Of a DNA stretch of 37,419 nt, positions 24,016 to 36,621 are shown piece by piece (position 1 is the first letter of the stretch; each line of letters begins with the position of its first letter). Origin of the DNA: Fonticula-like sp. SCN 57-25 (lineage: Eukaryota). The stretch is taken from the NCBI GenBank assembly GCA_001724245.1, contig MEDX01000034.1, positions 1 through 37,419 on the forward strand, given 5' to 3'. The notes under the pieces are model-generated. The model saw only the letters and a list, made by a program, of their open reading frames with translations, ran no database searches and had not been told where the DNA came from. Made by a program: the position numbers and the translations under genes.

Positions 24016-27000
24016 CTAGTGCGCCGAGCTTTCGGTGTGCCTCCTCGTCATAAAGGTCCGCAGGGTCTGCCTTGCGAGGTGTCTCTGGCGCTCCGCGAGC
24101 TCGATCCTGAGCATCTCGAGCTGCCTCGTGAGCATGACCGTGACAGACTGCGACGACTCGAGCTGGAGCCTGAGCTTTCCGAGCTCTGCGCGCTCGTTTG
24201 TGTCGGGCGACTCGTCGAGCGAGAGGGTGCGCAGGCGCGGGAACCACTCGAGGTTCTCGCTCGCGATGAGGTCCGCGACGTACGTCTCGGGCCCCGTGTA
24301 CTCTGTGGGGTCCTTGCACCTGAGGTGGACGATAAAGTAGAGGTAGTGCCAGAGGTTGTGCTCGGACTGCGTGTGCATCTCAAAGGTGGTCGAGCGGTTC
24401 TCAAAGGCCGAGCGGTCCAGGCCGCAAATGAAGCAGGTGTTGCGGCGGTTCTCCTCCTTTTCATTCTTTTCCGCGCGCAGGTCGGCGAACGTGTCAATGA
24501 TCACACCAAAAATGAGGTTAAGGACGATAATGATCACGATGAAGAAGAAGGAAAGGTCAAAGATGACGCGCGTCACAAAGAGCGGCTCGCTCACCGACTT
24601 TTGCTTGAGGACGTCGCCAATGCCGCCGCCGTTGCGCAGACCGAGATTCAGCGTTGTCACAAGGCACATTATAAGCGAGTCGCAGGAGCGCTCGTCGTCG
24701 CCGTTCACTTCCACGAGGAAATCGTCGCGAAGGATAAGGAAACCAATCACCGAAAACATGTAGATAATGATCAGGCCAAAAACGGCCGTCATAAAGATCG
24801 ACTTGCCGTTCCTCGTCACCGACCGAATCACGTTCCGCAGCGTGTCGTCGCGGACAACAACGTCAAAGAGCAGCGGCGCATGGAAGAGCGGGTTCACAAA
24901 CACGGCGAGCATGCAGCATAAAAAGTACCCAACATAGTACACGGGCAGGAGGTCTTCCCACAAATGCCCTTTTCGCAGCAGCAGCAGGCCATAGTTGCCA
25001 AAGTAACTCACAAGGATCACGAGCGCGCTCGCAATCTGGACGAGGCCGAGGGCAAAGATCAAGCCGGCTGAAATCGTATCAAACCACGACTCCTCCCAAT
25101 CGAACGGATACGTGGCCGCAATCAGCACGTTGATCATAAGGGTCAGGAGGAACGACACCTGCTTCCACTGCATCATGTGCTGCGTGAACCAGTAGAGGCG
25201 CTCCTGCGAACGGAGGAGGTTCTGCCAGAGCATCTCGTGGTACAGGCCGTCCACGCGGCTGAAAAAGTCGGGTACCTTGGAGCCTTGGTCGTCGCGTGCG
25301 GTGTTAATCTCCACATCCAGCCGCGACTCGTCGGTAAGGTACTTGCACACGGCCGGCTTGGAGTAGTAGAGCACCTGCAGCTGGCCCTCGCGGACAATCT
25401 CAACGGACCCAGTGTTGGCGCGCAGCTGCTGGATCGTCGGGTCCGGCTGGTCGAGCTGGCTTGCGAGCGCGGCATTGGCGCCCGACAGCTGGTGCAGGAG
25501 AATGTACGTGCTGCTGCTCACTTCCAGCGCGAGCGGCGAGATATGCTGGCCAACATCAGAGTACGCGAGCAGCTGGCGGTGCGCGCTCTTGAGCGTCTTG
25601 AGCAGCTGCAGCGTGTCCATGCTGATAATCAGCTTCTCGGCAACCACGTCCGTCTGGCGGCTCTCCAAAAGACTCAGCAAAAAGGTGACGAAATTGCGCT
25701 TGAGGTTGAGTGCGGCTTCGGCGCGCTCCGCGGCGTTCACGCCAAAGGAGCGCTCCATCGACAGCACGCCGTGCGCGAGCTCAAACGTGTGCGCATCGTG
25801 CGTCGCGACGCACAGCTGGTTGTCCTTGTTGGGCCCCTGGCAAAACTCTGTCAAAGAAATGATGCACTGGTTGAGCAGGCCAAGGCGCGCTTCCTGCGAG
25901 AGGCAGCCCTGCACGCTGTACGTGCCGGACGGCGTCAGGCAAAGGCAGTCCATGTAGTCCTGCGTCAGCTGAACAATGTTGTTGCGCCGCATCAGGTTCT
26001 GCAGGTCGTTGTGGTGGTGCTCGCACATGAGCTGCGCCAGCCGCATAATGTTCTGAATGACCTTAAAGTCGCCGTCCTGCGGCGAGTTGCGCGTGTGACG
26101 ATAGCGATCAGTATAGTTGCGCGACATGCCGTAGACGTCGAGCTCTTCCATCGACTCTTCAATGCGGATCACCAGCGCCTTGAAAAAGGGCACCTCGACT
26201 TCGGGCGTGCGAACGCGCTCGTACAGCGCCGCCTGCACGTCGCGATTGCCGCCGTCGAGAAGCGCCACGCACAGACTGACCGTCTCATTGTACTCGACGG
26301 TCGGCAGCGCATTGTCCTCGCGGGCAGCCAGCAGCATCAGGTCGACCAACAGGTTCGTCAGGCCGCACTTGTTCAGCTCATTCTGGATCTCGACGCGCTC
26401 ATCGGCCTTGCGCTCAAGCACCTCTTCAATACCGTTCTCGAAATGCTTTACAAGTTCGCGCTGGGAAAGCGCAGTGCCCTCGCGGGCAATGGTCGGAGGC
26501 GAGAGCATGTCGTTGAAGAGGCGCAAGAAGGGCAGGCGCATCTTTTCGCCGTTAGAGGACCGCAAATGGTCAATGATGCGCGTGAGGAGCGCCTCGGAAG
26601 ACTGGCTCGCGTCACGCCGATTGAACGCCTGAAGCAGGTCAACGCGCTGAAGAACAGTCACAAGAGCGTGGCGCTCGGCCTGAATCATCGGCTCATTGTC
26701 GCGCTCCAGAACGTCCCTAAAGTCCTGCATCGACGAGGAGATCACGCGAATCTTTTCCAGCTACATGGCCGTGAGCAAAAACATAAAAAAAAACAAGCCA
26801 CGTACATGCGAGTCGACCGACGGGCGCCGCGAAATGATTCCCTTTTTGTTGCGCACGTTCTCCAAAAAGTTGTTGATGGCCTTGTTCGCAACGCGCCGCT
26901 TGGACAGGTACGCCGGGACTTCCATGCCGAGCGTGTGGTTCATCGGCAGGCGTCGCTCGAGGAAAGCGTTGTACATTGCCTGCACGGCGGCCTCGAGCGC

Positions 27001-36200: not shown

Positions 36201-36621
36201 TGGGCGCCGTGTCGGACTGCTACGTCGAAGTGGACATTTTTGGCACGTCATCGGACGAAGCCGCAAAGAAGCGCTCGCGCACAGTTTGTACGTTTTCCCC
36301 ACCTTTTCTCTCCCTTTTTGCCGCCATTTCCGTCTAACTCTGCGCTTGCCAGATGCCGACGGCCTCAACCCGCTCTGGAACGAGACTTTCCAGTTTAGCT
36401 TTGAGTACCCCGAGCTCACATTTGTGCGGCTGACGATCATGAGCAGCGAGGACAGCACCATCACCAACGGCGACGTGCCGCTCGGCACCTTTACGTTCTG
36501 CCTGTCGGACGCGCGGCAGGGGTACCGCCGCGTCCCTCTCGAGGAGACATTGGGCGAGATCATCCCGCAGAGCTCGATGCTGATCAAGCTGGAGCTGCTG
36601 GACGGGCAGCGCACAAAGTAA
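33281..36621 (+). CDS. PLC: Phosphoinositide-specific phospholipase C (PH-EF-X-Y-C2, delta-like architecture)
   Basis: PH (IREIRAGQNT...LSIIHG...VDLV...W), EF hands (DENKDNLLDFGEF), X box [24 protein letters not shown]...GCRCVE.DSWDG...THGHTMTS...SFENHCS, Y box LRIYP...DSSN.DP...GCQLVALNYQT, C2 domain ...GYRRVPL. In-frame upstream ATGs exist (first at 33131); 33281 is preferred on Kozak context and CCAAT position. Confidence 0.95.

Follow-up and report, generated by a model that had tools for sequence, protein, structure and literature searches.

Divergent genes for an IP3 receptor and a delta-type phospholipase C in a Fonticula-like eukaryote

The stretch of DNA analyzed here, which we refer to as the window, is contig MEDX01000034.1 of the Fonticula-like sp. 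SCN 57-25 assembly (GCA_001724245.1; 37,419 nucleotides, forward strand). It is eukaryotic DNA of ~57% GC with very short introns, and between positions 24016 and 36621 it carries two genes in head-to-head orientation: one encoding an inositol 1,4,5-trisphosphate (IP3) receptor (IP3R; 24016 to 32852, minus strand) and one encoding a delta-type phospholipase C (PLC; 33281 to 36621, plus strand). Phosphoinositide-specific PLC (PI-PLC) converts phosphatidylinositol 4,5-bisphosphate (PIP2) to IP3, and the IP3R is the IP3-gated Ca2+ channel of the endoplasmic reticulum, so that the two proteins act at consecutive steps of one pathway. As read from the sequence, the IP3R starts with a minus-strand ATG (CAT at 32850 to 32852), and the start codon of the PLC is found in gccgccATGatg, with its ATG at 33281 to 33283 on the plus strand. 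Between the start codons lie 428 bp (32853 to 33280), and the outer ends of the pair are stop codons, at 24016 (TAG, minus strand) for the IP3R and at 36621 (TAA) for the PLC. These readings match exactly the positions and spacing given in a preliminary description of this DNA, which had proposed that the two genes share a bidirectional promoter as an operon-like signaling module. Here, we describe both genes, the spacer between them, and their surroundings, and we argue that their adjacency is probably a matter of chance.

Structure of the two genes

Both gene models were built with a dynamic-programming script, supported by tblastn matches to homologues and by a codon table derived from the two large IP3R exons, and were then corrected by hand from sequence and homology; their junctions are placed by homology and splice consensus. 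The IP3R gene was defined by its Pfam domains, by tblastn of its best homologue (P0001, the match of which spans 32777 to 24070), by the hand-curated spliced model, and by a phylogenetic tree. The model comprises 15 exons over 8.8 kb and encodes 2704 amino acids with zero internal stops. Exons 1 to 8 lie on the minus strand at 32852-32707, 32657-32587, 32539-32427, 32370-32179, 32126-31851, 31798-31681, 31634-31491, and 31421-31089, and exons 9 to 15 follow at 31039-30840, 30789-30321, 30264-30033, 29986-29722, 29665-28787, 28737-26806, and 26760-24016. The 14 introns are 45 to 69 nt long, and 13 of them are of the GT-AG type, mostly with the form GTRCGY...CTRAY...YAG. The fourth intron (32178-32127; 52 nt) appears to have a GC donor (GCGCGC...CAG, as opposed to the local consensus GTGCGC), which we accepted because the sole GT alternative deletes the conserved sequence VTLDDMGSE. 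A Thr/Ala/Pro-rich low-complexity stretch of ~90 amino acids (about 28990 to 29311, minus strand) is open in frame inside the gene; it follows the second RIH region and precedes the regulatory domain, near residues 975 to 1050. An automatic model had placed a 273-nt intron here instead, far longer than every other intron in the pair. Because such an intron would dwarf all others, we kept the stretch as coding.

Stop-to-stop open reading frames (ORFs) from 24 to 36.6 kb were scanned against Pfam, and 9 of the 14 translations gave hits. On the minus strand, these were Ins145_P3_rec (PF08709), MIR (PF02815), two copies of RIH (PF01365), RIH_assoc (PF08454), and Ion_trans (PF00520). No SPRY or RyR families were found in the minus-strand ORFs scanned.

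We take the IP3 contacts, in IP3R1 numbering, to be R265, T266, T267, G268, R269, R504, K508, R511, Y567, R568, and K569. Alignment to IP3R1, IP3R3, and other solved chains places 10 of these 11 residues in the window protein, the exception being T266, the equivalent of which is a glutamate. The beta-trefoil contacts fall in a single exon (31681 to 31798, minus strand), where the sequence FLRETGR (R265, E for T266, T267, G268, and R269) pairs with FLRTTGR of solved IP3R chains. The remaining contacts are found in two exons of the ARM1/RIH region (30321 to 31039, minus strand): DRNRQKVLR (R504, K508, and R511) pairs with NRERQKLMR of solved chains (E 1.6e-11), and DYRKNQE (Y567, R568, and K569) is identical in them (E 2.6e-52). 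Thus, the preliminary statement that the receptor retains its ligand contacts holds at 10 positions and fails at position 266. In a table of 52 homologues, the full set of nine residues R265, T267, R269, R504, K508, R511, Y567, R568, and K569 was shared by only 7, all of which fall in the animal IP3R clade; a tardigrade receptor has the same set except for an R at K569. Nucleariid, Mucor, oomycete, and kinetoplastid homologues in this table lack most of the contact set. Position 266 is itself variable among the animal-clade receptors (F, T, S, M, or K), and the substitution of T266 by E is therefore probably no bar to membership in the IP3R group.

The residues for Ca2+ sensing and permeation are likewise in place. 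In the ARM3 segment (25600 to 26058, minus strand), aligned to 3jav_A and other chains, the glutamates equivalent to E1978, E2042, and E2101 of rat IP3R1 are all conserved; these three are the Ca2+-sensor glutamates according to a published account (PMC9522344). The pore and C-terminal gate (24360 to 24645, minus strand), located from translations and motif positions, contain the selectivity filter GGGIGD followed by a Zn-finger-like CFICG...H....H. In an alignment of the IP3R family, G2549 to G2551, I2552, and D2554 of this region hardly vary, and C2614, C2617, H2634, and H2639 do not vary at all.

The ancestry of the receptor was assessed with a FastTree phylogeny of the last 950 residues, containing 35 rows (the window protein and 34 of the 52 hits; the 18 excluded were mostly oomycete and unnamed Logan/metaclust sequences). 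The window protein falls in a 10-row clade with animal IP3Rs with a local support of 98, the nucleariid homologue Nk52 lies outside the clade of animal IP3Rs and the window protein (support of 100), and RyRs are distant. This placement suggests that the source organism is probably a unicellular relative of animals. Neither the window IP3R nor the window PLC has an entry of its own in a collection of 5.8 billion proteins, in which the best match to the IP3R is 38% identical. The window gene is intact and, by its domains, residues, and tree position, is predicted to encode an IP3R, which groups with those of animals. It is a full-length IP3R from outside the animals in which 10 of the 11 animal-type ligand contacts are combined with the Ca2+-sensor residues.

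The PLC gene was defined by its Pfam domains, a stop-free model, and its match to PLC-delta1. The model has 9 exons on the plus strand (33281-33828, 33876-34011, 34061-34526, 34578-34784, 34834-34998, 35054-35792, 35844-35968, 36015-36287, and 36353-36621) and encodes 975 amino acids with zero internal stops; the introns are 46 to 65 nt long. The first exon may instead end at 33820, where there is an alternative GTGCGT donor. Two of the introns, 34527-34577 and 35793-35843, are in frame, and in the alignment to rat PLC-delta1 each leaves a gap of precisely 17 residues; splicing out the first of these introns restores the sequence VELDSWDG. Plus-strand Pfam domains were PH_12, EF-hand_like, PI-PLC-X, PI-PLC-Y, and C2, which is the delta-type order PH-EF-X-Y-C2, with no SH2/SH3 insert, beta-type C-terminal domain, or RasGEF/RA domains. 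The PH domain is very divergent: PH_12 scored 26.6 bits with a cutoff of 27, and the top hit was 1mai, the PH domain of PLC-delta1 (E=0.058). Across the whole protein, PLC-delta1 is the best solved relative (E 7e-40).

In rat PLC-delta1 numbering, the catalytic residues of the X box are H311 and H356, and the Ca2+ ligands are N312, E341, D343, and E390. In the window, the EF-hand-like region and the X box (34061 to 34784, plus strand), read through the splice junctions and aligned to 1qas and 1djg, contain SHNTY (H311 and N312), VELDSWDG (E341 and D343), THGHT (H356), and FENHCS (E390). Both catalytic histidines and the Ca2+-binding acidic residues, which the preliminary description had reported, all align to those of PLC-delta1. 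The region from 35054 to 36621 (plus strand) encodes the X-Y linker, the Y box (SFSE and RIYPG), and the C2 domain, as assigned from Pfam, alignments, and the spliced model; the linker is ~225 amino acids long, acidic, and Ser/Pro/Asp-rich, and its ORF gave no further Pfam domains. Named database matches to a query covering the EF and X regions were animal delta and eta isozymes and a chytrid protein, at 37 to 50% identity over the aligned part. The chytrid protein, P0053, was the best match (262 bits versus 184 for the next); it is annotated as PLC delta-4 and is 1867 amino acids long, and its gene model may combine tandem or fused genes. Judged from its sequence, the window PLC is an intact delta-type gene with all catalytic residues.

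The spacer and the gene neighborhood

The preliminary description had noted no recognizable gene between the two start codons, and our analysis of the spacer (32853 to 33280) bears this out. The best in-frame coding score within it was 8.6 over 15 codons, which is at noise level; ORFs crossing it matched no Pfam family, and it contained no Rfam families or tRNAs. It has a GC content of 0.60, CpG dinucleotides are not depleted (35 observed versus 37 expected), and the only repeats are weak ones. The genes are divergently oriented, lie <1 kb apart, and have no gene between them; because divergent genes <1 kb apart are usually taken to define a bidirectional promoter region, the interval counts as one in this operational sense.

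Two candidate promoter motifs were found in the spacer. The first is a TATAAA at 32967 to 32972 (plus strand), which precedes the IP3R ATG by 115 nt. This motif is overrepresented in the window (14 copies versus 3.8 expected, a count reached in 0 of 100 shuffles), and the copy in the spacer is the sole one from 21.4 kb to the window end; a role for it as a promoter element is plausible. The second is the CCAAT-box-like sequence GCCAATCA at 33161 to 33168 (plus strand), which precedes the PLC ATG by 113 nt. It belongs to the pattern RCCAATCA, which occurs 9 times in the window versus 2.5 expected (9 copies were reached in 0 of 100 shuffles), at 10364, 11431, 13620, 14129, 14401, 16584, 18039, 24742, and 33161, with 8 of the 9 on the plus strand. 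The looser pattern RCCAATSR showed no enrichment in the window. Several copies of RCCAATCA lie 100 to 450 nt upstream of plus-strand genes, and those at 11431 and 18039 are inside the spacers of other divergent pairs. Because it recurs in this way, the motif looks like a general promoter element rather than one specific to the IP3R/PLC pair, and we consider it a candidate CCAAT-type element of this genome. Motif counts and a repeat search revealed no pair-specific motif or symmetry in the spacer. The TATAAA at 32967 and the GCCAATCA at 33161 are ~190 bp apart, each nearer one gene, as might be expected if the two genes had separate core promoters. The spacer also contains an ATG-initiated 25-codon ORF upstream of the PLC start (33051 to 33128, plus strand); if PLC transcription began on its far side, such as in the vicinity of the TATAAA at 32967, this would be an upstream ORF.

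The other genes of the window (5100 to 23300) are ordinary and unrelated to Ca2+ signaling. They include an RTEL1-like helicase (plus strand) and a PHD-finger protein (minus strand), both within 5100 to 23300, as well as further divergent pairs: near 11.3 to 11.8 kb, a septin (left, minus strand) faces away from an eIF2B-family subunit (right, plus strand), and near 17.7 to 18.5 kb, a SUN-domain protein (left, minus strand) is paired in the same way with the catalytic subunit of Rab3GAP (right, plus strand). With an unnamed pair near 14.5 kb, at least three divergent pairs besides IP3R/PLC were counted, with spacers of a few hundred bases, in keeping with an earlier caution that such pairs abound here. 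Since at least three more pairs of this kind are present, a head-to-head arrangement across a short spacer is the local norm. At the left end of the window, positions 1 to 3900 have a GC content of 0.49 to 0.51 (versus 0.55 to 0.61 elsewhere) and almost no coding signal by the IP3R-trained codon table.

We then looked for the same pairing at other loci. Metagenome contigs were scanned with an alignment of ten IP3R-family proteins; at least 594 stretches matched, and at least 323 were confirmed as relatives. The best 80 of these at least 323 confirmed IP3R/RyR-like loci were searched by tblastn with 8 PLC queries (E≤1e-5). All 80 are distant, their identity to the window protein not exceeding ~40%, so the comparison is a long-range one. 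No PLC was found near any of the 80 loci at this threshold, the top match being at chance level (E=0.035). PLC was likewise absent from all 24 loci that have ≥2 kb of flanking DNA on at least one side, and from all 7 in which the 5' end is complete and is preceded by ≥2 kb of DNA (L014, L030, L031, L044, L053, L060, and L079). The upstream ORFs of at least 110 amino acids at these seven loci and at L036 were scanned for neighbors (41 of 70; most of the 29 omitted overlap a scanned ORF in a different frame or on the opposite strand). Neighbors were identified at six of the seven loci; they include aconitase (at both L014 and L031), an HhH-GPD glycosylase, Polo kinase, TRIP4, and a nucleoplasmin-like protein, and none is a PLC, while the scan of ORFs upstream of L060 yielded no identifiable neighbor. 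The synteny comparison thus had power and came out negative, at long range, and the microsynteny that the preliminary description had put forward as a check went unsupported at these distances. Literature searches, which did not cover supplementary files, returned no report of IP3R-PLC gene adjacency. As a separate observation, aconitase lies on the same strand a few kilobases upstream of the IP3R gene in two unrelated contigs (L014, at ~5056 to 6045, and L031, at ~4775 to 5879); aconitase-IP3R is a conserved neighborhood in some other eukaryotic lineage.

Weighing chance against selection

We interpret the locus as two ordinary, functional genes of a PLC-to-IP3-to-IP3R pathway that became divergent neighbors by chance in a compact, short-intron eukaryotic genome. 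The PLC, with its PH-EF-X-Y-C2 architecture, would cleave PIP2 into IP3 and diacylglycerol. At the receptor, IP3 would be bound by the N-terminal core, Ca2+ would be sensed by the ARM3 glutamates, and Ca2+ would be released through the GGGIGD pore. Both 5' untranslated regions and both promoters must be accommodated in the 428-bp spacer, and some correlated transcription is therefore plausible, as it is for any close divergent pair. That the adjacency is a lineage-specific, unselected accident of gene order between two functional genes seems to us probable, if by a modest measure.

Two points weigh against this interpretation. The chance of finding this particular pair adjacent is ~0.3% per genome, and lower for a head-to-head arrangement, a figure that uses assumed, unmeasured numbers (~2 genes for IP3Rs and 6 for PLCs out of a total of 9000). 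In addition, the synteny comparison reached distant homologues rather than close relatives. The interpretation by chance therefore depends on the very large number of "meaningful" pairs that could have been flagged, this one having been chosen after the fact.

The principal alternative is that the pair is a selected, coregulated module, in which one bidirectional promoter drives both the generator of IP3 and its receptor and the adjacency is under selection in this lineage, either keeping their dosage matched or turning on the whole pathway at one life stage. The partnership of two consecutive pathway steps, the intactness of both genes with their functional residues, the empty 428-bp gap, and the low a priori chance of adjacency estimated above from assumed paralogue numbers all speak for this idea. 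The surrounding evidence points the other way: unrelated divergent pairs with similar spacers lie all around, the spacer has neither a motif nor a symmetry specific to this pair, its two candidate elements would be in keeping with separate core promoters, the 80 distant IP3R/RyR-like loci searched are without a PLC neighbor, and the literature yielded no such pair. We consider a selected module unlikely. Of the operon-like module proposed in the preliminary description, the identities of the genes, their intactness, and their head-to-head arrangement at less than 1 kb therefore stand, while selection on a shared promoter is left unsupported. A bolder form of the same idea, that in this lineage of unicellular relatives of animals the IP3-making enzyme and the IP3-reading channel constitute a two-gene "Ca2+-release cassette" switched as a unit from the 428-bp control region, is a speculation to which we give little credence. 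If true, such a cassette would be the first case of a eukaryotic second-messenger generator and its receptor forming a conserved bidirectional gene pair. Were the pairing conserved and coregulated, it would reveal a rare gene-order logic in eukaryotes for a signaling rather than a metabolic pathway, and a single 428-bp spacer would offer a compact handle on IP3/Ca2+ signaling in an animal relative.

A further alternative concerns the channel itself. If the glutamate at T266, in the phosphate-binding loop, weakened or altered ligand binding, the protein might not be a classical IP3-gated receptor, and its link to the PLC would be loosened. The substitution in FLRETGR does bring a negative charge near the phosphate-binding site, and there is a precedent for divergent regulation: the IP3Rs of Capsaspora appear to be without mammalian-like Ca2+ regulation despite conserved sensor residues (PMC9522344). 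To that extent, conservation of residues alone is no guarantee of animal-like gating. However, the remaining ten contact residues are present, bona fide animal receptors also vary at 266 (F, S, M, and K), and the homologues that share the nine-residue contact set are all from the animal IP3R clade. We therefore regard a nonclassical channel as distinctly improbable.

Finally, it is very improbable that one of the genes is decaying or so mis-modeled that the pair is functionally meaningless: although the exon junctions come from homology and consensus, one IP3R intron requires a GC donor, either of two donors could serve the first PLC intron, and the ~90-residue Thr/Ala/Pro-rich stretch of the IP3R could be coding or intronic, the 2704 and 975 codons are open across short consensus introns, homology extends from end to end of both genes, and the catalytic, ligand, and pore residues tested are kept (10 of 11 in the case of the IP3 contacts).

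Chance adjacency of two functional genes thus remains the interpretation that we favor. Independently of how the pair arose, the window IP3R and the adjoining delta-type PLC should help in working out how the IP3/Ca2+ toolkit arose before animals did.

Comparison with known systems

The IP3R and the PLC both come from known families, the arrangement of their genes is an ordinary one, and each protein can be set beside a solved relative. With animal ITPR1 to ITPR3 (3jav, 6dqj, and 9ymz), the window receptor shares its domain order (Ins145_P3_rec/MIR, RIH, RIH, RIH_assoc, and Ion_trans), 10 of 11 IP3 contacts, the equivalents of E1978, E2042, and E2101, the GGGIGD filter, the CFICG...H...H motif, and its grouping in the tree, with about 38 to 43% identity in the C-terminal part. 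It differs from them in the E at T266, 20 extra N-terminal residues, the Thr/Ala/Pro-rich insert, and the compactness of its gene. The window PLC resembles rat PLC-delta1 (1djg and 1qas; PH domain, 1mai) in its PH-EF-X-Y-C2 order, in both catalytic histidines, in N312, E341, D343, and E390, and in the SFSE and RIYP sequences. In contrast, its PH domain is very divergent and is preceded by ~70 residues, and its X-Y linker of ~225 amino acids is much longer.

As for the arrangement of the genes, divergent pairs that share a promoter and encode cooperating products are known: the histone pairs H2A-H2B and H3-H4, GAL1-GAL10 of yeast, and COL4A1-COL4A2 of mammals. Like these, IP3R and PLC are head to head with a spacer of <1 kb, and their products take part in one process. 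The histone, GAL1-GAL10, and COL4A1-COL4A2 pairings, however, are conserved across many species and their coregulation has been demonstrated, whereas the IP3R-PLC pair is absent from the distant relatives examined.

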